From IMG/VR virus record IMGVR_UViG_3300028833_000099: a DNA stretch of 64,000 bases; one strand, written 5' to 3'. Position 1 is the first letter of the stretch. Each line of letters begins with the position of its first letter. The stretch comes from a virus. Lineage: Duplodnaviria; Heunggongvirae; Uroviricota; Caudoviricetes. A model generated the notes under the pieces. The model was not told the origin of the DNA. It ran no database searches and was given only the letters and a program-made list of their open reading frames with translations. This document shows positions 5,555 through 58,427 of the stretch, piece by piece. A program made the translations under genes and the position numbers.

Positions 5555-5628
5555 AATGCCTTAAAGCATTTGATAATTTATAACGTGCCATTATTTTTAT
5601 CTTTTATTGGTTTGATTTTTTTATATTG

Positions 5629-5913
5629 TTAAATGTGAGAAAGCAGCAACAATAAATGTTGACATTCAGACATTCTTGCTTCTGTTTCTATACTATGAGA
5701 ATTGTGTTCTTTTTCTCTCCAGTATTCGTATCTTTTTTTGATTTCTTCATAGATTTTATTGACTTTATCAATATCTTTAGTTTCGAGAGTGTTGATAAAA
5801 TCAACCGCACTAGTAAGGGCATATTTTCCACTAGTTATTTCTGTTGGCTGATAAGAGTTTAACTCTTCCATTATCCACATTAATACTTTATTTTTTTCTA
5901 TATACTGTGCCAT
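5629..5913 (-). CDS. hypothetical protein
   Basis: Start trimmed to MAQYIEK (ATG at 5911-5913), downstream of the promoter module at 5935-5990. Confidence 0.4.
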   Translation of the reverse strand: MAQYIEKNKVLMWIMEELNSYQPTEITSGKYALTSAVDFINTLETKDIDKVNKIYEEIKKRYEYWREKEHNSHSIETEARMSECQHLLLLLSHI

Positions 5914-7632: not shown

Positions 7633-8890
7633 AATATCTAATTTTACAAAACATATCTACTAATTTAGATAGTTTGTCGTTTATTTTCTCACCGAAAAAA
7701 ACAATATCATCTTCAGAAATTGACCATTTAAATGTCCCATTAGATTTGTATATGTTTTCGTTTACAATTTCATTCGCAACAATAAAAATAGAAAGTATAA
7801 CATCCACTAATAGAATGATTATGAACAAAGCGATAGTTTGCCCATCGGTCATTTCAACGTTTATATAGTCAAAGTCCTTAAATTGCTTACGTTTCCAGAG
7901 TTTTATATTGTTTGCTAGCCAATCGCCATACTTAGAAATATCAAGTGTATTGTGCTCCCTAAAATACCTTTTTGTTGCCACCTCTAACGTAGGTTTATCA
8001 CACCATGAGAATGGGTTGCACCAATCTATTTTGTTTGTCTTAGTGTTATATCCTAGGCACAATACAAATTCGTTTTTGTTGCCTCCTTGCCAATATGATT
8101 TTTGCTGCTCAGATATTTCTATGGGTTTATCTTTGAAAATCAAAATATATAATCTGAATTGTCTTTTACCACCCATTGTGGCATTTAAAAACCTAATTTT
8201 TTTTTCAGTCTCCCTATCAAAGTTCATTCCCATGATAGGATTTTGGTCATAATCACATATATTTGGATACGAAAACAAACCAAGTTTTTTTGCTTGCGCA
8301 TCACTAATCTCTTCAAATTTAAATATTGAACGAGAAGCGATAATCTTATTGGTATATGTATGAGTTGTAGTTAGTGTCTTGCTGTTTTGGTATGTTCCGT
8401 CCCAATGGTATTCTTGCGCATCACCATCCTTAGTGTAATAGTCACGGTGCATATCAACAAACACAGCACTAGGATGATTTAACTCAGCCATTGCTAAGTC
8501 AAACTCTTTTTGGTTATAGAAATATGTTTCGTTTCCATTATTGTCAGTATATGTCCATCTTTCTGGGTGATAATCACTGTATGAGCAATCATATGTTTCA
8601 GTATGAGTTAATTCATGCCCATTTTCATCGTAGCCATCGTGTACTGTTCTAGTACATGTCCGTTCAATCCATTCATCCCAATCATCATAATGGGTAATTT
8701 TGGTAACATAACTGCCCCAATATTCTGTATCACTTTCATTGAAAGATACAAATGCTGTTTTCAATAATAATGTGAAAACAATAGACACTCCTATTAAAAG
8801 TATGTATTCCAACCAAGTCACTTGCTTTCTGAAAAACATCAAAAGCAAGAATGAAATGATAAAAGGTAATAAATAAATAATAACTAACAT
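7625..8890 (-). CDS. membrane-anchored hypothetical protein
   Basis: 421 aa with two N-terminal transmembrane helices. Confidence 0.5.
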   Translation of the reverse strand: MLVIIYLLPFIISFLLLMFFRKQVTWLEYILLIGVSIVFTLLLKTAFVSFNESDTEYWGSYVTKITHYDDWDEWIERTCTRTVHDGYDENGHELTHTETYDCSYSDYHPERWTYTDNNGNETYFYNQKEFDLAMAELNHPSAVFVDMHRDYYTKDGDAQEYHWDGTYQNSKTLTTTHTYTNKIIASRSIFKFEEISDAQAKKLGLFSYPNICDYDQNPIMGMNFDRETEKKIRFLNATMGGKRQFRLYILIFKDKPIEISEQQKSYWQGGNKNEFVLCLGYNTKTNKIDWCNPFSWCDKPTLEVATKRYFREHNTLDISKYGDWLANNIKLWKRKQFKDFDYINVEMTDGQTIALFIIILLVDVILSIFIVANEIVNENIYKSNGTFKWSISEDDIVFFGEKINDKLSKLVDMFCKIRYYV

Positions 8891-15837: not shown

Positions 15838-16092
15838 TTATTCTGTTTCTTCTCTCCACAAATTATTTTCCATTTTGTCAGAATTGGAAAATTCTATAAT
15901 TTCGTCAATGTTATCACATTTAATTTTTTTCAGCATATCCAATTCAATTTCTCCATTATTGATGCCTTCAACAAGAGCCAACAATGTTCTATATGGGGTT
16001 AATAAATTTCTAAGATGTGCCCCTAAAGTTTCTGTTGCCATTTTTTTATTAATTAGTAGGACAATGTGGACTCGAACCACAGACCTCCCCAT
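15838..16092 (-). CDS. hypothetical protein
   Basis: 84-aa ORF. Its 5' end overlaps the tRNA-like element at 16059-16140, so the start is uncertain. Confidence 0.3.
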   Translation of the reverse strand: MGRSVVRVHIVLLINKKMATETLGAHLRNLLTPYRTLLALVEGINNGEIELDMLKKIKCDNIDEIIEFSNSDKMENNLWREETE

Positions 16093-16140
16093 ACTAGTGT
16101 TTCCACGTTCTGGTGTACTCTACCAACTGAGCTATCGTCC
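16059..16140 (-). tRNA. tRNA-like gene (82 nt, anticodon arm not resolved by eye)
   Basis: Canonical D-arm (GCTCAGTTGGTAGAG), T-arm (GTGGTTCGAGTCCAC) and a complementary acceptor stem. The central ~33 nt is too long for a type I tRNA. Confidence 0.45.
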
Positions 16141-16401
16141 TTAATGCAATCTTCATGCGGCTAGCGTTTCCTTCTTCCGCACTCATCTAAGTAATTGCTT
16201 GATAACTGACTGTTTTACAATCTCGGTCAAACTAACTCCATTGCAAGCATCAATCTGTTCCGAAGTCGAGACTGTTATATCTTAGCAATGTCGTGTGGCA
16301 GGACTGCCCTCACCACGTCTTTCAGTTACCGTTTTGAAGCTTCATGGTGCAAATGTACGAAATTAAATTGATATATCCAAATTTTTTTATCTTAAAAAAC
16401 G

Positions 16402-18464: not shown

Positions 18465-19871
18465 TCATACCGTTAGGCTCTTTAATTTATTTTCAACAAT
18501 CTCAAATGCTTCATCTTTAGTCATATTAGGATTTTCAAAATATGCTTCTTTAACAGCCTCTAAAAGTATTCCAATATTTGGTCCACTTTTTAAATGAAAT
18601 TCCTTCAAAATATCGTCTCCAGAGATAGGAAGTTTAACATTTGCTGCTTTTTCAGCATCTTCCATTTCCTCTATTCTATTGAGAATATCAAGAACTTGCC
18701 GTTTTTTCTTACCAAAGGTGCAATAAAGATTATTGGCGTTCATTAGGTCAGCAGTTGCCCCCAAATCATCACCAGTTAAGTTGATAAATTTTCTAATCTT
18801 CTTATCTGGCGGTAATACGCCATCGGCATAACTTGCAAAACCTCTATGATGCTTAATGGCGGTTTCAACAGATTTGATGATATAATTAGGGTATTTCATG
18901 TCCTTCAAGTCGCTTGCAGCAATTTCTGCACTAAACTTATCTGGCATCACATCCCTACGTTTCTCTGTTATAATTCTACCAACATCATGGAACAAAGCAG
19001 CCAATCTGTTTTCTAAATAAGGCTGAACAGTATCTAGCACGTTCATCGTATGGTCAAATGTGCTAACCATAGGATTCCTTGACTCATAGGCGTAGGTTGT
19101 ATCATAAATATCGGGCATTACTCTATGCAAAATGCCACAGAAATACATTTTCCGAATACCGATGCTTGGTTTTTCACAAAGTAGAATCTTGGATATTTCG
19201 TCACTAATTCTTTCTTGCGATATAATTTTAATGCGGTGTGCATTTTTAATCATCCCTAACCAAGTGTTTTTTTCAATATCCCAACCGAATCTAGTTGAAA
19301 AACGAATTACACGTAAGATTCTCAATGGGTCATCATTGAACGTAACATCTGGGTCAGTTGGAGTCTTTATTACTTGATTTACCAAGTCATCTATAGAGCC
19401 GTTAAAATCATGTATTTTCTCTGTGCTGATGTTATAATACAGAGAATTGATAGTAAGGTCACGCCTTTTTGCATCCTCTTCAAGGCTTCCGAATACAGTT
19501 TCTGGGTTTCTGCTTTCCTTGTGGTACTGTTCCTTTCTAGTTTGGACGCATTCAATCTCTATATCTTTAAATTCATCGTTCTTGAACAATTGGAACTTCG
19601 CAGTTCCATAGTTTTCAAACACTACTGGATTAGTATTATGAATAAAACATTGGTGTTTTATTGCCATATATACAGCAAACAGCATTCCACCGTTTTTCAT
19701 TTCAACAACGATGTCAATGTCTTTAATGGGTAATCCTAACAATGCATCACGCACACAGCCACCAACCAAATATACTTTTCCTTCAAAATGAGTGTTTTTG
19801 ATTGACGCTTGTATGAGGTCAATTAGGTGTTTGATTCTATCATCAACTTTTTTAAATAATAGTTCGTTCAT
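18465..19871 (-). CDS. cca: tRNA nucleotidyltransferase (CCA-adding enzyme) with HD domain
   Basis: Pol-beta nucleotidyltransferase signature GGCVRDALLG...DIDIV plus an HD motif LFHDVGR. Confidence 0.85.
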   Translation of the reverse strand: MNELLFKKVDDRIKHLIDLIQASIKNTHFEGKVYLVGGCVRDALLGLPIKDIDIVVEMKNGGMLFAVYMAIKHQCFIHNTNPVVFENYGTAKFQLFKNDEFKDIEIECVQTRKEQYHKESRNPETVFGSLEEDAKRRDLTINSLYYNISTEKIHDFNGSIDDLVNQVIKTPTDPDVTFNDDPLRILRVIRFSTRFGWDIEKNTWLGMIKNAHRIKIISQERISDEISKILLCEKPSIGIRKMYFCGILHRVMPDIYDTTYAYESRNPMVSTFDHTMNVLDTVQPYLENRLAALFHDVGRIITEKRRDVMPDKFSAEIAASDLKDMKYPNYIIKSVETAIKHHRGFASYADGVLPPDKKIRKFINLTGDDLGATADLMNANNLYCTFGKKKRQVLDILNRIEEMEDAEKAANVKLPISGDDILKEFHLKSGPNIGILLEAVKEAYFENPNMTKDEAFEIVENKLKSLTV

Positions 19872-30237: not shown

Positions 30238-30756
30238 TTAATCGTTCTTCTTTAAAACATGGAAGCAGAACTGAGTTCCATTACCTTGCAACATTGATTT
30301 GTAATAGGTTCGCCATTCCTTTTCATCAAACTCTGGAAAAAATGTATCTCCATCATCATCATCTTCCACAATAGTTAACCTTAACTCGTTGACAAGGTTT
30401 CTCTCCATAAACTGACGGTATATCTCACCACCACCGATTACGAATAGTTCCTTATCAGAGAAAAAAGCGTTACACAATTCGATAACGTCATCAATTGAGT
30501 TTACAATGTATACGTTATCGTATTCACCACTTACTCCAAAATCTCTAGAAGTCGTAAGAATAATGTTTATCCTATCTTTCAGAGGCACACCATTGGGAAG
30601 GGATTCGAAAGTTTTTCTACCCATAATGACAACTCCATTATGTTTAGTCATCCTAGCAAAATTATTAATATCGTTATCTATCCGATACAATAATTTACCA
30701 TTTTTTCCAATTACTTGTTTTCGATTCATACAAGCAATAATAATAAATTTAAGCAT
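30238..30756 (-). CDS. folA: dihydrofolate reductase
   Basis: IIACMNRKQVIGKNGKLLYRI, VIMGRKTFESLP and FVIGGGEIY are classic DHFR blocks. The start was chosen at MLKFIIIACMN to avoid overlap with the upstream gene. Confidence 0.85.
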   Translation of the reverse strand: MLKFIIIACMNRKQVIGKNGKLLYRIDNDINNFARMTKHNGVVIMGRKTFESLPNGVPLKDRINIILTTSRDFGVSGEYDNVYIVNSIDDVIELCNAFFSDKELFVIGGGEIYRQFMERNLVNELRLTIVEDDDDGDTFFPEFDEKEWRTYYKSMLQGNGTQFCFHVLKKND

Positions 30757-31684
30757 ATATAATATTATTTTGGTTATAAATGTTTTTATAAATTCTATCA
30801 CTAAAAATATTGTATTTTTTTACTATTGATTCCCTAATATAATATTTTAATTTAATTCCGTGTGCTTCACAAATTTCTTTTTTTCTTAAGTCTCTTTCTA
30901 TTTCGTTTTCTAAAGAACTTGTAAAAAAACTAGATTCAATAAAATGCTGTATTCCTTGACACTCGATAGCCACATTTTCTTTATCCAAATAAAAATCCAC
31001 ACTTTGATTACCAAGAATACCGCCAATATTACTATACCTTTCATTAGAAATACCCATTCCGTTTAGAATCAATAGTATTTCATTTTCTAACGTACTATTT
31101 TTACAATCTGGACACCCTTGACCTCTTAAATGTGCTGAAGGTATCTGCCAAAATTCGCCATGCTCTGGACATATTATGCACACTTTTGTCTCATTATTTA
31201 TATATTCTACTTTAGAATAGTCATACTTATCACCATGAACTTTTTTAGCATCATTAATAAAGGCATCTAATTTTTTTTTCAATTTATTTGCTGCATTTTT
31301 TCTACCGCAAATTGGACATCCTTGACCTTGAAGATGATTTATAGGCTGCTGCATAAATTCTCCATGTATAGGGCATCCTATTTTAACTTTAGTATGATTA
31401 GTTACATATTCTACTTTAGAATAGTTATATTTATCACCATGAATTTGTTTCGCCTCGTTAATAAATTGCTCTGTAGTTTTGCGATAAATTTTAGACCTTT
31501 CTTCAATTCCACATTTTTTACAGCCATGACCTTGAAGATGGTCGTTTGGTCTTATAAAAAATTCCCCGTGTTTTGGGCATATTATACAAACTTTTTTATC
31601 ATTTCTCTCATATGCAACTTTCGAATAATCATATTTATCTCCGTGTATTTTTTTGGCTTTTACTATAAAATTTTCACTATTCAT
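30749..31684 (-). CDS. homing-endonuclease-like protein with three zinc-ribbon repeats
   Basis: Three tandem repeats of K.HGDKYDYSKVEY...CP.HGEF...HL.G.GC..C, followed by a C-terminal domain that may be a nuclease fold. Confidence 0.45.
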   Translation of the reverse strand: MNSENFIVKAKKIHGDKYDYSKVAYERNDKKVCIICPKHGEFFIRPNDHLQGHGCKKCGIEERSKIYRKTTEQFINEAKQIHGDKYNYSKVEYVTNHTKVKIGCPIHGEFMQQPINHLQGQGCPICGRKNAANKLKKKLDAFINDAKKVHGDKYDYSKVEYINNETKVCIICPEHGEFWQIPSAHLRGQGCPDCKNSTLENEILLILNGMGISNERYSNIGGILGNQSVDFYLDKENVAIECQGIQHFIESSFFTSSLENEIERDLRKKEICEAHGIKLKYYIRESIVKKYNIFSDRIYKNIYNQNNIIYA

Positions 31685-36976: not shown

Positions 36977-37061
36977 GTAGCGAGGGTTGGTTTCGAACCA
37001 ACGATGAGCCGAAGCTCCCTTCCTTATGAGAGAAGTGCGATAGACCACTCTGCCACCTCGC
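36977..37061 (-). tRNA. type II tRNA with anticodon loop CTCATAA (CAU)
   Basis: Acceptor GGCGAGG/CCTCGCT, Leu/Ser-like D-arm TGGCAGAGTGGTCTA, anticodon stem CTTCT/GGAAG and a long variable hairpin GAGCTTCGGCTC. Confidence 0.5.
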
Positions 37062-37134
37062 CATTAAGTAGCTGCGTCACTAGAATAAATCCGTTCACTA
37101 TGTTTAAGGTTGTGTACACATACCTACAGCTACT

Positions 37135-40117: not shown

Positions 40118-40166
40118 AATTATAAATATTCGAATACGTACAAAAATAATTAGTATCTGAAATTAG

Positions 40167-40250
40167 AACACCACATGGGATTCGAACCCATAAGACCTTT
40201 CGATACCTCTTTAGGAGAGAGGGACGCTTCCAATTACGTGCTAGTGGTGC
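40167..40250 (-). tRNA. tRNA-like gene (anticodon loop CTCCTAA, CCU; extended variable region)
   Basis: Acceptor GCACCAC/GTGGTGT, anticodon stem CCTCT/AGAGG, T-arm ATGGGTTCGAATCCCAT. At 84 nt it is atypical. Confidence 0.4.
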
Positions 40251-42241: not shown

Positions 42242-43225
42242 TTATTTAGCAAAAGTTTCAAATGCATCATCAACCAATTGCGAAACCATATCTATCTGGT
42301 ATGTCGCTAATTCGCTCCTAAACATTCTTCCACTCATTGTTCTTCTACCTTTCTTTTTCTTAGACACGAAAACTGTTTTACCACCTTTATTATCTTTCGA
42401 TGGTTTAAGCTGCTCGTCTTCAGTAGAATACCCAATATGGGTGAAACCTAAAAATGAACCGTTTTTCTCAATTTTGCAGAGTTCAACATGATTTGCACCA
42501 TATTTAAACTCTCCAGTACGAACCTTAATTTGTTTAATGTACCTTGTTGAGGGGTCTTTAAGACTCATACCAACTGCAAACATTGCATCAAAGAAATTAG
42601 TTAGTTTTTTACTACCACTTAGGCTGTTCTGCGTAAGTGGAGAACCCAAATTCCTTTTTGGCGTGTGCGAGAGAACTAGAATACTCATTCCGTATTTTTT
42701 CTTTAACGTACAGAGATTTTTCATAAGTTTTCCAGCAGTAGTTGCAGTATCTTTCATATTGACAAGCCAACTAAGGTTATCAACAATTATAATTTTTGAA
42801 TTGTATTTGTTAATGTTAGCCTCAATTCCACCAATAAGAACATCATCGAAACTTTCTTTTGTCGCATCACAATAATCTTTGACTGCATCTGAATCAAGTT
42901 CCACTCTAATGAACTTATCACTGAAATTAAAGGTATCCTTTGTTTTCTCGTCAGTATATCTAAGCTCAAACTGTTTTTTACTCAACTCAAAATCGTAGTA
43001 TAAAACAGTCTCACCGTTTTTCACTTTTTCAGCAATGGCATTACCAATCTGAACGGCAAGAATACTCTTACCTACATTTGCGTCAGCAAAAAGGCAACAG
43101 ACCTCATTTTCAAACCAAAACTCTTTCCAAAGTTTCTTGGGGTCTTTCTGCTCTTTCGCTTTAACAATTGTCTCATTGGCACTCATGCCACTGAATATGT
43201 CTGCTAAAGATGGTTTATTTGCCAT
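42242..43225 (-). CDS. RecA-superfamily P-loop ATPase (AAA_25/DnaB-like)
   Basis: Walker A ADANVGKS and Walker B-like IIVDNLSW. Confidence 0.6.
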   Translation of the reverse strand: MANKPSLADIFSGMSANETIVKAKEQKDPKKLWKEFWFENEVCCLFADANVGKSILAVQIGNAIAEKVKNGETVLYYDFELSKKQFELRYTDEKTKDTFNFSDKFIRVELDSDAVKDYCDATKESFDDVLIGGIEANINKYNSKIIIVDNLSWLVNMKDTATTAGKLMKNLCTLKKKYGMSILVLSHTPKRNLGSPLTQNSLSGSKKLTNFFDAMFAVGMSLKDPSTRYIKQIKVRTGEFKYGANHVELCKIEKNGSFLGFTHIGYSTEDEQLKPSKDNKGGKTVFVSKKKKGRRTMSGRMFRSELATYQIDMVSQLVDDAFETFAK

Positions 43226-48725: not shown

Positions 48726-48744
48726 ACTGTTTATTGTTTTATTG

Positions 48745-48800
48745 ATGCAAAGGTACGAAAAAAAGCTGAACTAGCCAAATAATCAGTTCAACTTTAACAA
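48745..48800 (-). promoter_or_regulatory. terminator hairpin + promoter module
   Basis: GCAAAGGTACGAAAAAAAGCTGAACTAGCCAAATAATCAGTTCAAC. A near-identical module lies at 49422-49478. Confidence 0.55.
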
Positions 48801-49385: not shown

Positions 49386-49689
49386 AAAAAAATATTTTTA
49401 TTACTATTTTAATTTATAGTGCAAAGGTACGAAAAAAAGTCGAACTAACCAAATAATTAGTCCAACTTTAACAATCTTTAACTTTACACTTGTTTTGCGC
49501 CTTGTTTATCTTAGGTCAATAATATAGAATAGGTTTACCTATACCAACCATAAAGGTATCCTCTTATCCATCAAGGAACTAGGGTAAGGGGCTAATCCTC
49601 GCACCGCATTACTGCTTCACCTACCATTTCTTACGTGGTTTGTGCTGTCTTACCTATTTCAGTACTTCACTTGAGTACACCAGCCGTAG

Positions 49690-49780
49690 TGAGCATAGTA
49701 GGATTCGAACCCACGATGAACTTTCTCAAGCCCATAACGGTTTTAGGGACCGCCACAATCGACCACTCTGCCATATGCCC
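49690..49780 (-). tRNA. type II tRNA with anticodon loop CCCTAAA (CUA), a candidate amber suppressor
   Basis: Acceptor GGGCATA/TATGCTC, Leu/Ser-like D-arm TGGCAGAGTGGTCGA, anticodon stem GCGGT/ACCGT, ~20-nt variable arm and T-arm GTGGGTTCGAATCCTAC. Confidence 0.5.
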
Positions 49781-49789
49781 AGTTAAATA

Positions 49790-50110
49790 TTAAGATTCAG
49801 ATAATCTTTTTAATTTATTATTAAGAACAAGAATCATACCTTCAGCGATTAGTTTCTCATTCTCATAGTGTTTTATTCTTTTTTTCAAAGTTTCAACTAG
49901 TACTTTATTTGCTTCTTCTGTGGTGTCATATACTACACTGCCGTTAATTAGATAATCACCATTTGCTAGGTCTTTCCGTCCAATTTTGAAAATAGGGCGT
50001 TCCCTACCATCATCAATTGGTTTACTAACTACGACACTAGTAGTTATTTCATCATCACCACTTATATATATGGCAGTATCGCCAACATTTAAATCTGCTG
50101 CTTTTTTCAT
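49790..50110 (-). CDS. hypothetical protein
   Basis: 106-aa ORF. Confidence 0.4.
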   Translation of the reverse strand: MKKAADLNVGDTAIYISGDDEITTSVVVSKPIDDGRERPIFKIGRKDLANGDYLINGSVVYDTTEEANKVLVETLKKRIKHYENEKLIAEGMILVLNNKLKRLSES

Positions 50111-50211
50111 AATGCAAATATATGAAAATTATTTTAAATAACAAAATATTTTCAATAGTTTTAACAAAAAAAAGCACTATAAGCTAAAGCCTATAGTACT
50201 TTTATATCGCA

Positions 50212-50815: not shown

Positions 50816-51024
50816 ATTTTTTCCTTTTATTAATTCGTTATATTCTTTAAATGTTAAAAACTTTACTTCACTTTTTTTCCCTAACGAATTAATTTTAGGA
50901 GTACCACGAACACGATTCAGCTACCAAAATTGGCTGAAAACCTACCAAAAACTGTTTTTCTTCATAATAATAATTTTTATTTTAATTAGTTAATAAAAAC
51001 GGAAGCATTTTCCTATGTCAAGGT

Positions 51025-51100
51025 GGTTGGATTCGAGCCAACGCAAGCGTTTCAAGCGTATACGGCTTATGAGACCGTCATGTTACCACTACATCACCCC
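51025..51100 (-). tRNA. tRNA-like element with anticodon-like hairpin ACGGT-CTCATAA-GCCGT
   Basis: T-arm GTTGGCTCGAATCCAAC with a CAU-type loop. The variable region is unusual. Confidence 0.3.
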
Positions 51101-51511
51101 ATGATTAATAAAACTTACGGATATACTTTATCAGGAATCTTGCTTTCTCTGCTGAAGACTTATTTTTACCTATCCACTCATAGGAACTTCACAGAGTGCT
51201 TCGCACACCATTAGGTAGCATCGAATGAGATAGTATTCCATACGCTAGTGGAACTATATAGACATTGTTACATACCTCAATCTACATTCTTCTTAGTGTG
51301 TACCCTTGCGACAAATGTACCCACGCTTGTATATCTACGCCTCTATCGTAAGTTTTATATTGAAGGGAACTTTTTTTCGGTTTTATTCGTTTCAAGCAAA
51401 TTCCATATAGTCATTGCTGTAAGTTCCCACTATTGGTTAAGGAATTGGAAACGGTAGAGCCACACTACGAAACTCTCTACCTACTCATCGTAGCATTATC
51501 CAAAACCTTAG

Positions 51512-51585
51512 TGGACAAGATGGGACTCGAACCCACGACCCTCTGAATGCAAATCAGATGCTCTAGCCAACTGAGCTACAAGCCC
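51512..51585 (-). tRNA. tRNA-Ala (UGC)
   Basis: D-arm GCTCAGTTGGCTAGAGC, anticodon stem TCTGA/TCAGA with loop TTTGCAT, T-arm GTGGGTTCGAGTCCCAT, G3-U70 wobble. Confidence 0.6.
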
Positions 51586-51719
51586 TAGAAAAATTGTTAG
51601 TTTTTTATACAGAACTAACAAACTGCATAGAGTTCTCAGCTTATTCGTCTTTAGTTTGCTCACTTTGAACCTCTTTTGTTAGTCAGAAGGAATCGAACCT
51701 TCATTACAACCATTTGACC

Positions 51720-52046
51720 TTAAAGAATTTCTACTACTTTTCCGTAGATTTGGTTTCTACCTACCCATCCGTTCATATGTCCGTGATTGTTACCAATAAG
51801 ATATTCACTATCATTTTTAATTGCATGGATTAGGTGCAGATAATGATGACCTCTAACTTTGCAAAGAACAATATTTTTCTTTTCTAGTTTTGTGTCATCT
51901 TTTACTGGTTCACATATAACCGCTTGTCTTGATTTAAGAATAGGGGCCATAGAGTTACCAATACCAGTTACTTTACACGTCTCACCTCCTCTGAGGTGAT
52001 TGCAAGTTTCTTGATTTTCGAAACCGCTATAAGTAAATTCTCTCAT
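51720..52046 (-). CDS. S24/S26-like serine peptidase domain protein
   Basis: GNSMAPIL resembles the GDSMxP catalytic-serine motif of LexA/UmuD/signal peptidase folds, with a downstream conserved Lys. Confidence 0.5.
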   Translation of the reverse strand: MREFTYSGFENQETCNHLRGGETCKVTGIGNSMAPILKSRQAVICEPVKDDTKLEKKNIVLCKVRGHHYLHLIHAIKNDSEYLIGNNHGHMNGWVGRNQIYGKVVEIL

Positions 52047-52192
52047 ATGTTAATTGTTTAAGTGGAGTATTGGAGATTCGAACTCCAAGAGGTCTTATGT
52101 TTCCCGCCTCTCGTATGGTCTTCTTATGCATGAAACCGACCAGCAGGTCACCACCCAACGTGTTTATACCCCATGAGAATTACTTATTGCAG

Positions 52193-52310
52193 GGACTGAC
52201 GGATTCGAACCGCCATCGTTTATTAACAGTTAAAGGCACACTCTGTTCCGAGGTCGAGAGTGCTTTATTCCTTAAAGCGCAACAAATTACTTTACCATTA
52301 AGCTAAATCC
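52193..52310 (-). ncRNA. elongated tRNA-like RNA (Ser-GGA-like anticodon hairpin)
   Basis: Complementary termini AGGGATT/AGTCCCT, D-arm-like GCTTAATGGTAAAGT, hairpin GCTTT-AAGGAAT-AAAGC, a long hairpin CACTCT...AGAGTG and T-arm GGCGGTTCGAATCCGTC. At ~118 nt it exceeds any tRNA. Confidence 0.3.
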
Positions 52311-53377
52311 CTATATAAATACAAAAGACTGAGAATGTTGTCTTATTGTTAATGCCATTTTACAAGCGTTGGAACTTGCTATTCACACGTCACCTTACGA
52401 TGAACGTAGACATCATGCACGGAAGTCTTGAGAAGACAACCAAGAATCTTACTAGTTTAAACCTTGCGGTGCAGCATCATAGCTTTCAGTTCTTCGCCAA
52501 GCTCTTGCGGATTCATAGGATGCCTCCTATTAACTCAGACGAGTACTTTTACACGCTCATTGAATTCCTTGCGAGTCCTCAATGTCTCAATATTTCATGA
52601 GAATAAGTGCATTTTAGCTGCCTAGTGTCGCACACTTTTGCTTAAATTGATTTTTGAATCATATTTATGTTCCGTAGGCGGTTTGGAAGACGAGGTGCGA
52701 CTAAGGACATCTGTAACTTTTGGCTACAGCCCATCCAATCGCCTCCCTGTGCTAGCTCACCACAAGCTATTCACTATTATACACCATCACCTCATATGAG
52801 TTCTTACACATTTCTATGTAAGACTAGTGCATAACTGAGTACAACACGCCAACTGGTGATTATTGCATCATACTCCATACAGTAATCTATCGTGTCACCA
52901 CTCATTCAAAGATTCCTCACCCTTGAAAATATACAACTTTGGTGTTACCCACATTGTATACCGTACTGTATGCTTTTCAGTGAAATACATGAGAGTTTCT
53001 CATATATCTGCAACGTTTACCGCTAGTACACGTCACATTTATCCCATCACTGGATTATCCTTCCATCTGGCTACGAAAGCTAGCCATTAGCCTCATATCT
53101 TTCGCAAGATATTTCCTCATGGAAATTGGCTTATTTCTTGAGTTTTTCATTCGTTTTCAGTTTATTATAATAGGTAAACTGCTTCCTCTTTAGAGGTGGG
53201 TTCATATCCCAAGCTCCTATTTTTTAGCCCTACATCGAATTTTTTTACCCAATACTTACTTTTTTCTAGTACACGTTCTCTAGAATATGGTTCCCGAAGT
53301 TACCATTGCTATGGATTGTTTAACCACATAAAACCCATTTTTACCGTTGTCTACGGCACGAAAAGGCATATCTCGTT

Positions 53378-53530
53378 GGTTAGAGCAGATTTGCACTGCT
53401 GAAGCTTCCGAAGAAACACATCAAGCACGAACTTGATGCCCATTTGTCTACATCGTCATTGCTGACGTTCTCCTCTGGTACTAACCAAAAGGTGGTTTTT
53501 TGACTTGTCCACCACAAGGTATAGTGTGTA
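53378..53530. repeat. ~150-bp structured element, copy 1
   Basis: Copy 1 (~53378-53530) and copy 2 (~53683-53835) are ~90% identical direct repeats. Compensatory changes preserve two helices: AGCAG...CTGCT versus GCTAG...CTAGC, and TTGGTTAG...CTAACCAA versus TTGGTAGA...TCTACCAA. Confidence 0.6.
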
Positions 53531-53682
53531 GTATTGTAAAGGCTAATTCATTTTGCAGAACTAATTTAATGGTAAAGGACATCTGCTATGTTTCATACAG
53601 TTGTGTGTTTGTCGCAACCTCACTTTCCTCGCCAACCTTTACTGCCGATTGCACCTGAGCGTTTATACTACATTTGTTGGTA

Positions 53683-53835
53683 GAGCTAGATTTGCACTAG
53701 CGAAGACTCCGAAGAGCCACATCAAGCACGAACTTGATGCCCATTTGTCTACATCGTCATTGCTGACGTTCTCCTCTGGTATCTACCAAAAGGTGGTTTT
53801 TTAACTTGCCCACCACAAGAATAGTTGCGGCAGTA
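53683..53835. repeat. ~150-bp structured element, copy 2
   Basis: Second copy of the element at 53378-53530. It carries paired substitutions that maintain the helices. Confidence 0.6.
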
Positions 53836-54651: not shown

Positions 54652-55165
54652 AACTAAATTGTTTTTTTACTTTAAAAATAATCAGCTACACGAACCTCTT
54701 CAATGTACTTATGAAAGATTCCCTTCCATACATGTTATACAGATTAACGCATGACTTATATCCTAATATAGCCTAACTTTACTGTAAAAGTTTACTTCAT
54801 CATCCAACCCTGACTGATTATTTAGTGGACTTGCGCAGAGTCGAACTGCGGTCCAAACAACCATTCCATAAGAAATTATACAAGCTTTGATTTGGAAAGT
54901 TGACAGCAAACGCTGCCCTCACCGCTACCTTATTTTGCGAAAACAAGGAAAACTATACAAAGATGACTAAAGAATAATGCTAGGGTGTTCTGTTCCTAAG
55001 AGCCTAGCCTCTCGGCTTACATTACGCAGCTATAGCGTACTCGTAAGCAGGAGAATCAACATTCTCGCCAGTTATATTTTTTTGCTATTGAAGTGTATGC
55101 CCACTGCTTGTTTCTTACCAAATGCATTGCTGTCAAATCCATTACAAGCCCATGATAAAAAATTG

Positions 55166-58151: not shown

Positions 58152-58338
58152 TCCACCACATAAATGCTAGCGATGTTCCAATTACAAAATACAAAATAGT
58201 AATAATATATTCAATACTCATAACAATAGAGTAGGCTTCCTCTACCTACCACGACAGTTAACGGTTTTTGTTAGTTCAAGGTACTAATAGACCAAGCGCA
58301 GTGCTCTGTTACACCGTAAACACCGATAAGGATTATCG

Positions 58339-58427
58339 CACACAGGGCAGGATTCGAACCTGCGGTAGGATTTTAAACCTACGTTAGTTTTGGAGACTAA
58401 TGGGTTAAACCACTCCCCCACCTGTGT
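58339..58427 (-). tRNA. type II tRNA with anticodon loop CTCCAAA (CCA)
   Basis: Acceptor ACACAGG/CCTGTGT, anticodon stem TTAGT/ACTAA, variable hairpin CGTAGGTTTAAAATCCTACCG, T-arm GCAGGTTCGAATCCTGC. It has a Leu(CAA)-like body with C35. Confidence 0.45.

Follow-up and report, generated by a model that had tools for sequence, protein, structure and literature searches.

The question raised by this locus is whether a tRNA gene with a CUA anticodon, carried by a very large phage, is a genuine amber suppressor and, if so, whether TAG is read as sense in the genome that carries it. The gene was found at 49690..49780 on the minus strand of a stretch of phage DNA of 64,000 nt, which was analysed at its full length and is referred to here as the window.

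The suppressor gene comprises 91 nt up to the discriminator A73. CCA is not encoded, and the three letters 3' of A73 are CUA. In ARAGORN the gene spans 92 bases (c[49689,49780]), while Rfam RF00005 matched 49690-49780 (-) end to end (48.1 bits; gathering score 29), so that the good cloverleaf described in the initial annotation was returned by both programs. The acceptor stem contains 7 bp (GGGCAUA/UAUGCUC, with G2.U71) and is separated by U8 and G9 from a 4-bp D stem (GCAG/UUGU), the D loop having the usual GG (G18G19). The 5-bp anticodon stem (GCGGU/ACCGU) closes a 7-nt loop, CCCUAAA, at 49742-49748 (C32-C33-C34-U35-A36-A37-A38). Within this loop the anticodon C34 U35 A36, which reads UAG, occupies 49744..49746 (-), both in the sequence and in the ARAGORN drawing. 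The CUA register proposed earlier was also that of the ARAGORN call, and neither ARAGORN nor Rfam proposed UAA-Leu or any other register. The variable arm forms a hairpin of 8 bp with a GAGA loop (49716..49735, (-)), seen in the ARAGORN drawing and in the alignment of orthologues, and is followed by the T arm GUGGG-UUCGAAU-CCUAC, with a 5-bp stem and the T loop UUCGAAU. The 7-bp acceptor stem, 5-bp T stem, T loop, G18G19 and 7-nt anticodon loop are those of an elongator tRNA. The exception is position 33, which is C in place of the U of elongator tRNAs, a detail absent from the initial annotation.

ARAGORN named the gene 'tRNA-Pyl(cta)', a label that it applies to every CUA anticodon, and an identity as tRNA-Pyl was rejected. 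The pylT-type architecture has a 3-nt variable loop and a small D loop, whereas the suppressor has a 21-nt variable region and a D loop of normal size. No pyl genes (pylS/pylBCD) were found among the window proteins scanned against PHROG and Pfam.

The suppressor is distinguished from a chance fold by comparative evidence (identical assemblies, orthologues and covariation) and not by folding energy, which was unremarkable for the single sequence (z = -1.5). The tRNA sequence was 100% identical in 12 independent assemblies. The neighbouring ATPase gene (42242-43225) was used to retrieve 56 related metagenome loci, and relatives with an ATPase of 78-100% identity had a CUA tRNA at the syntenic position, upstream of the ATPase. 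These orthologues comprised 14 distinct sequences with lengths of 75, 77, 78, 86 and 92 nt, in all of which the CUA triplet was kept in the alignment. Standard pairs occupied 96% of pair cells; sliding the 3' partners lowered this share to 38-55%, in most cases to about 40%. Changes on both sides were compensatory at 10 pairs, including all five pairs of the anticodon stem, and the observed covariation score was reached by none of 500 shuffles. The consensus anticodon loop of the family was CUCUAAA, as in efficient amber suppressors of E. coli. An apparent presence/absence polymorphism, which arose from differing gene calls, was discarded, the tRNA being found in every assembly that spanned the site. 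With CUA invariant in 14 orthologues and the anticodon stem compensated, the original assignment to the amber-suppressor type is borne out, and at the level of sequence it is firmly supported that the window carries a genuine gene of this type, conserved and maintained by selection.

The same annotation had assigned the tRNA to the Leu/Ser type from its long variable arm. The arm stands, as the 8-bp hairpin; the type is not supported, given the variation of arm length among orthologues, the A73 discriminator and the presence of long arms on other tRNAs. The variable region ranged from a 5-nt loop (locus L320, in a 75-nt tRNA) through 7-8 nt and short hairpins up to 21 nt, and the conserved long arm of class II tRNAs was not found in the suppressor family. 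Because the variable regions of the orthologues run from a 5-nt loop to an 8-bp hairpin, the arm is, judged on this alignment, a recent expansion specific to the lineage and carries no information on identity; the more distant orthologues have a shorter arm or none.

Several other tRNAs of the same phage group also have long variable hairpins, many of them closed by GNRA or UUCG loops. In the window these lie at 58338-58427, 36977-37062, 51017-51103 and 40166-40250 (all (-)). Outside it they were found at L107:4587-4668, 5576-5665 and 7726-7809, at L297:5149-5235 and at Lak-A1 501311-501402. The anticodons of these tRNAs, and in the cases checked their acceptor and discriminator elements too, are those of class-I amino acids. 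The long-arm set of the group includes a tRNA-Trp(CCA) of 90 nt with A1:U72 and G73, a tRNA-Gln(UUG) of 87 nt with U1:A72 in a relative, and tRNAs for Arg (ACG, UCU, CCU) and Thr (UGU) as well as CAU tRNAs; Lak-A1 likewise has a Trp(CCA) tRNA of 92 nt. Lengthening of the variable arm thus looks like a lineage-wide process, shared with Lak-A1, that could mislead isotype calls. As a practical warning, a long variable arm in this phage group does not point to Leu, Ser or Tyr.

The discriminator was A73 in 13 of the 14 orthologues and G73 in one. The other conserved elements were G1:C72, G2.U71 (A:U in two sequences) and G3:C70. A discriminator G73 is typical of Ser, and A73 of Leu or Tyr. The A73 of the suppressor argues against Ser. 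It would fit Leu, Tyr or Lys, and equally Gln, since the phage has a tRNA-Gln with A73; taken with U35 it would fit Tyr (as in supF) or Lys. The combination G2.U71/G3:C70/A73 is common to the long-arm tRNA-Gln of the phage group, and the closest paralogues of the suppressor by core sequence were the long-arm CAU tRNAs. Gln, Tyr and Lys are possible candidates for the amino acid inserted, as leads and not as proof.

Relatives of the phage encode a tyrosyl-tRNA synthetase (phrog_9270, E = 1e-141), located at L239:391-1698 (-) and at L298:10001-11287 and flanks. Its neighbours are IF3, a sigma-70 factor, DnaK/DnaJ, an AAA ATPase and NAD synthase, and the cluster also holds a radical-SAM protein, RtcB, SSB and TelA. 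TyrRS homologues were found on many contigs of 380-425 kb, so the phage family is evidently large and abundant in the rumen. The synthetase and the suppressor presumably share a genome in two cases, in each of which the lengths of the contigs bearing them agree exactly: 409,537 bp (TyrRS in L239, suppressor in L316) and 412,362 bp (TyrRS P0398, suppressor in L328). Synteny would place the TyrRS of the window species about 24 kb beyond the right end of the window. No tRNA-Tyr(GUA) was seen in the fetched parts.

Directly upstream of the suppressor is an ORF of 106 aa (49790..50110, (-)). The tRNA begins 10 nt past the stop codon of this ORF, the same arrangement was found in 10 assemblies, and the two are probably on one transcript. 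Bacteroidota promoters have the consensus TTTG-N19-TAnnTTTG. A promoter-like element of this type at 50115..50145 (-), comprising TTTG at 50142-50145, a 19-nt spacer and TATATTTG at 50115-50122, directly abuts the start codon of the 106-aa ORF and belongs to a repeat family of 19 copies. The ORF and the suppressor appear to be expressed from this host-type promoter, whose activity is predicted from the motif. All 19 window copies of the element are on the coding strand (e.g. 50100-50162, which is the copy at the 106-aa ORF, 49407-49469 and 48733-48795). The distance from the end of the -7 box to the start codon is at most 12 nt in six genes, and this spacing suggests mRNAs that are leaderless or nearly so. 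The extended motif was specific to this phage family and absent from Lak-A1.

The window also encodes a CCA-adding enzyme (tRNA nucleotidyltransferase; 18465..19871, (-); PHROG phrog_2244, E = 1.6e-64; Pfam PolyA_pol), from which the suppressor probably obtains its 3' CCA. Just downstream of the suppressor is a spacer of roughly 220 nt (49470-49688, (-)) with no ORF and no Rfam match. In loci L309 and L320 a tRNA-Ile(GAU) follows the suppressor at the site of this spacer, which may therefore hold a degraded tRNA or another small RNA.

The window has 34% GC and nearly all of its genes on the minus strand. It contains 23 Rfam tRNA matches and a tmRNA, and its other genes include a nicotinate phosphoribosyltransferase (NAPRTase) and a RecA/DnaB-like ATPase. 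The proteins of 826, 701, 476 and 431 aa received no annotation from PDB, PHROG or Pfam searches. The tmRNA is located within the tRNA array (54823-55151, (-); Rfam, 78.9 bits; tag peptide GENVDSPAYEYAIAA). One Rfam tRNA match (52190-52312, (-)) has a 53-nt insertion in the anticodon arm and was called Asn GTT by ARAGORN in intron mode, and another (16057-16141, (-)) has a 14-nt insertion in the same arm; group I introns were rejected for both, the insertions being too short. Two tRNA-Lys genes (CUU and UUU; 60478-60549 and 60643-60714, (-)) with the non-canonical T loops UGCAAAA and GGCAGAA were found by Rfam and missed by ARAGORN. Two repeats were recorded: a 204-nt threefold tandem repeat (31104-31669) inside the ORF at 30749-31684, and an element of roughly 130 nt at 53387-53819 in the tRNA region, present in two copies 301 nt apart that are 91% identical.

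The window was 99.8% identical to IMGVR_UViG_3300021256_000001 (295 kb), except for a swapped block at 50999-51721. This block is strain-variable: a different segment of 606 nt is present in the 295-kb contig, and the version in the window holds a long-arm CAU tRNA and a tRNA-Ala. Window proteins were also found on contigs of 407,876/407,879, 413,216, 391,503 and 388,000 bp, which places the genome at about 0.4 Mb (roughly 408 kb). The GenBank phage set yielded as relatives only the Lak megaphages, which were nearest and in which a few proteins had 43-64% amino-acid identity, and the more remote Tenacibaculum jumbo phages and phage G. Homologues in Lak-A1 were found for 14 of the ORFs tested (80 aa or longer, from the window and its left flank) at 29-64% identity; they were scattered and showed no synteny with the window. 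The Lak clade is marked by genomes that reach or exceed about 540 kb, a GC content near 26%, a Lak-type terminase and shared gene order. The present phage, with contigs of 388-413 kb, 34% GC and no synteny, falls outside it, and among the matches listed no Lak-like terminase could be tied to it. The suppressor is conserved across a family of rumen Bacteroidota megaphages of about 366-425 kb that are distant relatives of the Lak phages.

Like the Lak-A1 suppressors, the window gene is a phage CUA tRNA in a very large Bacteroidota phage with many other tRNAs. The two Lak-A1 suppressors are class I tRNAs of 73 and 75 nt that are 52-59% identical to the window tRNA, and the one at 225329-225401 has the acceptor pairs U1:A72, G2:C71 and G3:C70, which mark tRNA-Gln, whereas the window tRNA has G1:C72. 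Going by these sequences, the window suppressor is a lineage separate from those of Lak-A1, with an expanding variable arm and in a distinct phage family of roughly 400 kb. The CUA anticodon is shared with the E. coli amber suppressors supF (tRNA-Tyr CUA) and supE (tRNA-Gln CUA), and the A73, G1:C72, U35 and long variable arm of the window species are features that we take to be supF-like. Unlike these laboratory mutants, the window gene is natural and conserved, and some of its orthologues are without the long arm; its identity to canonical tRNA-Tyr was 57-58%, which amounts to no sequence similarity. Allo-tRNAs (Mukai et al. 2017, PMC5389517) likewise combine long variable arms with anticodons other than those of Leu, Ser or Tyr, including stop anticodons, but have an 8/4 or 9/3 acceptor/T-stem geometry in place of the canonical 7/5 of the window tRNA.

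Phage CUA suppressors and TAG-to-Gln recoding are established in Lak, crAss-like and other gut phages (PMC8346664; 10.1101/2021.08.26.457843), and 'sup-tRNAs' have been noted in jumbo-phage surveys, also in genomes annotated under code 11. The reading of TAG was assessed in about 104 kb of the phage's own genome, close to a quarter of the roughly 408 kb, none of which was identifiably structural or lysis DNA. Beyond the window the sample comprised three loci, all from the 99.8%-identical 295-kb contig: L011, 19 kb left of the window; L107, 10 kb right of it, where the tRNA array continues; and L192, about 45-56 kb left of the window. The last was found by a scan for the phage's own promoter motif, which among the matches listed returned L192 from this phage together with loci dispersed over its relatives. 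Only early-type DNA was met in a walk along the 295-kb contig.

No substantial ORF pairs joined by TAG were found in the window, and no TAG-interrupted genes in L011, L107 or L192. TAG ends 9 of the 82 window ORFs, after which 1-15 further codons precede the next TAA or TGA. Stop usage in 145 genes of the phage's own genome was TAA 102, TGA 28 and TAG 15, and TAG terminates 35 of 314 genes (11%) in relatives, which is at variance with code 15, in which TAG is not a terminator. When TAG was read as sense, coding density rose by +0.02 in the window, +0.03 in the left flank L011, +0.00 in L192 and +0.18 in the right flank L107, the last from spurious ORFs in the tRNA array. The gain was +0.36 for Lak-A1, +0.22 for L176 and +0.09 for L030 as recoded controls, and +0.11 for L171 as a standard-code control. 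The measure is noisy, since standard-code L171 gains +0.11 and tRNA-dense L107 +0.18. No TAG-interrupted genes were found across the roughly 104 kb sampled, nor a density gain of the code-15 kind in its three gene-rich stretches (window, L011 and L192), and the earlier remark that genes in the window look standard-code agrees with the lack of TAG-joined ORFs there and with its small density gain. A screen of family loci totalling about 0.94 Mb, with considerable redundancy, for homologue-supported ORFs spanning TAG gave only antisense or out-of-frame artefacts and neighbouring genes that share a frame by chance. Pairs of ORFs seemingly joined by TAG were rejected, either because the downstream ORF has its own ATG 1-3 codons past the TAG or because it is antisense or out of frame. 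There was no sign of backup stops, read-through extensions after TAG being not shorter than those after TAA or TGA (p = 0.27 and 0.66).

A single late gene could be identified, a T4 gp19-like tail-tube gene in a relative of 412,435 bp that bears the suppressor. It has 162 codons, a TAA stop and zero TAG; its match to Pfam PF06841 is barely above threshold (28.3 bits, with a cut-off of 28.2), and it belongs to the relative and not to the phage's own genome. A baseplate gene in L274 was set aside as evidence, the contig being outside this phage family (23% identity). The TerL gene of Lak-A1, extracted from the whole Lak-A1 genome, contains 18 in-frame TAGs. Many Lak-like terminases were among the matches listed in protein, viral-contig and genome-contig searches, all on other rumen megaphages, and none among those matches was on the phage's contigs (407,879; 413,216; 391,503; 388,000; 109,614 bp). 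The terminase-bearing contigs include TAG-recoded ones, L030 (36% GC) and L032 and L176 (about 29% GC), and standard-code ones of 39-43% GC (L026/P0120, L171/P0199 and L130). In another megaphage (L171:3619-5322 (+); ENA ERZ12302816 NODE_6_length_399247), three consecutive genes of 122, 136 and 247 aa lie in one frame, split only by TAG codons and short gaps and adjoining an intein-containing terminase in a locus that is otherwise standard-code; this may be chance or a TAG read-through fusion.

Taken on the sampled DNA, which is standard-code with TAG as an ordinary terminator, the phage is most likely not a Lak-style code-15 genome. We give an even chance to the reading that the suppressor is conserved in the absence of genome-wide recoding and acts on limited targets or in read-through. 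It is favoured by the coding seen in the quarter of the genome that was sampled, by the uninterrupted tail-tube gene of the relative and by the precedent of the Lak TAA suppressors. A suppressor of TAA is present in 51 of 51 Lak genomes with no sign of TAA recoding (PMC8346664), and the window tRNA resembles these, and the suppressors of standard-code relatives of recoded phages, in being conserved while no recoding of the matching stop is detected (PMC8346664; 10.1101/2021.08.26.457843). The Lak case concerns UAA, however, and that of the Agate phages UGA, whereas the window tRNA is a UAG suppressor kept across a family.

Classical partial recoding, the reading of the initial annotation, in which late structural and lysis genes elsewhere in the genome would have in-frame TAGs and the suppressor would serve as the code switch, as in Lak and crAss-like phages, is weakened by the sampled DNA and is possible though on balance doubtful. 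CUA suppressors are common in recoded phages, where recoding is concentrated in late genes (10.1101/2021.08.26.457843; PMC8346664), and the nearest GenBank relatives, the Lak phages, are TAG-recoded. Other rumen Lak-like contigs are recoded beside TAG-free early genes; in L176 such early blocks lie directly next to heavily recoded late genes. Since TAG-free early blocks can adjoin recoded late genes, a sample from the early region cannot settle the matter, and for the same reason little weight can be given to TAG as the terminator of early genes. The conservation of CUA across the family is also to be counted here, as deep conservation implies UAG codons that need decoding, and a weak pointer is that no full-length terminase from family contigs was returned in protein searches, for which fragmented gene calls are a possible reason. 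Late-gene recoding is opposed by the count of zero TAG-interrupted genes in the roughly 104 kb and the relatives' loci, by the use of TAG as terminator in 10-11% of genes of the species and its relatives, and by the tail-tube gene, with no TAG in its 162 codons. Lak-A1 (542 kb, 26% GC) has in-frame TAGs in every 20-kb bin, unlike the window phage (about 408 kb, 34% GC), in whose sampled DNA there were none, and the likeness between the two is confined to 14 homologous, non-syntenic ORFs among those tested.

A weakened or decaying copy in this species, a relic of a suppressor that functions in relatives, was considered on account of position 33. A U at this position is near-universal in tRNAs, and its change to C would on this reading impair decoding. 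U33 was present in 11 of the 14 orthologues, and in the sister variant L311, which is 97.8% identical to the window suppressor. We regard decay as quite improbable: the C33 form was the one found unchanged in the 12 assemblies, from many samples, while the flanking DNA differs by about 0.2%, and the remaining tRNA features are all intact. The other two C33 lineages, L307 and L332, have different, fully compensated anticodon stems, which suggests that C33 is tolerated.

A role outside translation or against the host, as a decoy for anticodon nucleases or in derailing host UAG termination at takeover, is very improbable: it would suit the heavy investment in translation (more than 23 tRNAs, a tmRNA and the CCA-adding enzyme in the window; TyrRS, IF3 and RtcB in relatives) and the anticodon-loop variants that are known in T5 to evade host nucleases, but decoding is the simplest explanation for an invariant CUA within a loop of canonical suppressor type, and the phage's own TAG-terminated genes would be read through too.

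If the suppressor is conserved without genome-wide recoding, as favoured here, it would be transcribed together with the upstream 106-aa gene from the host-type promoter, trimmed, and supplied with CCA post-transcriptionally, for which the phage carries the CCA-adding enzyme. It would then be charged by a host or phage synthetase, with Gln, Tyr or Lys as candidates and with a TyrRS encoded in the family, and would insert its amino acid at UAG. Its action would be on a small set of UAG codons in unsampled DNA, or in timed or partial read-through. We infer the expression, charging, suppression activity and targets of the tRNA from the features of the locus and its relatives. A more specific proposal, which we consider unlikely, is that the family keeps an efficient amber suppressor while TAG remains a normal terminator, as a tool for regulated or global UAG read-through and not as a recoding device. 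Its uses would be host takeover or programmed C-terminal extensions; the TyrRS of the family might charge it, with the phage tmRNA as a possible buffer against the effects.

Of the known routes by which phages switch a host cell to an alternative code, suppressor tRNAs are the principal one, and each new suppressor lineage informs how recoding begins. The suppressor described here is unrelated in sequence to the Gln-like suppressors of Lak phages and is found in genomes with TAG terminators in every part examined. It would be the more interesting if the complete genome showed zero recoding or a reassignment to an amino acid other than Gln. If the late genes are recoded, the family would be another lineage of the code-15 type, perhaps one in which an amino acid other than Gln is inserted. 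If all late genes are standard-code, the family would plainly exemplify a suppressor that is conserved in the absence of recoding, which would bear on an order of events in which the suppressor comes first and recoding later, and on the uses of read-through other than recoding.
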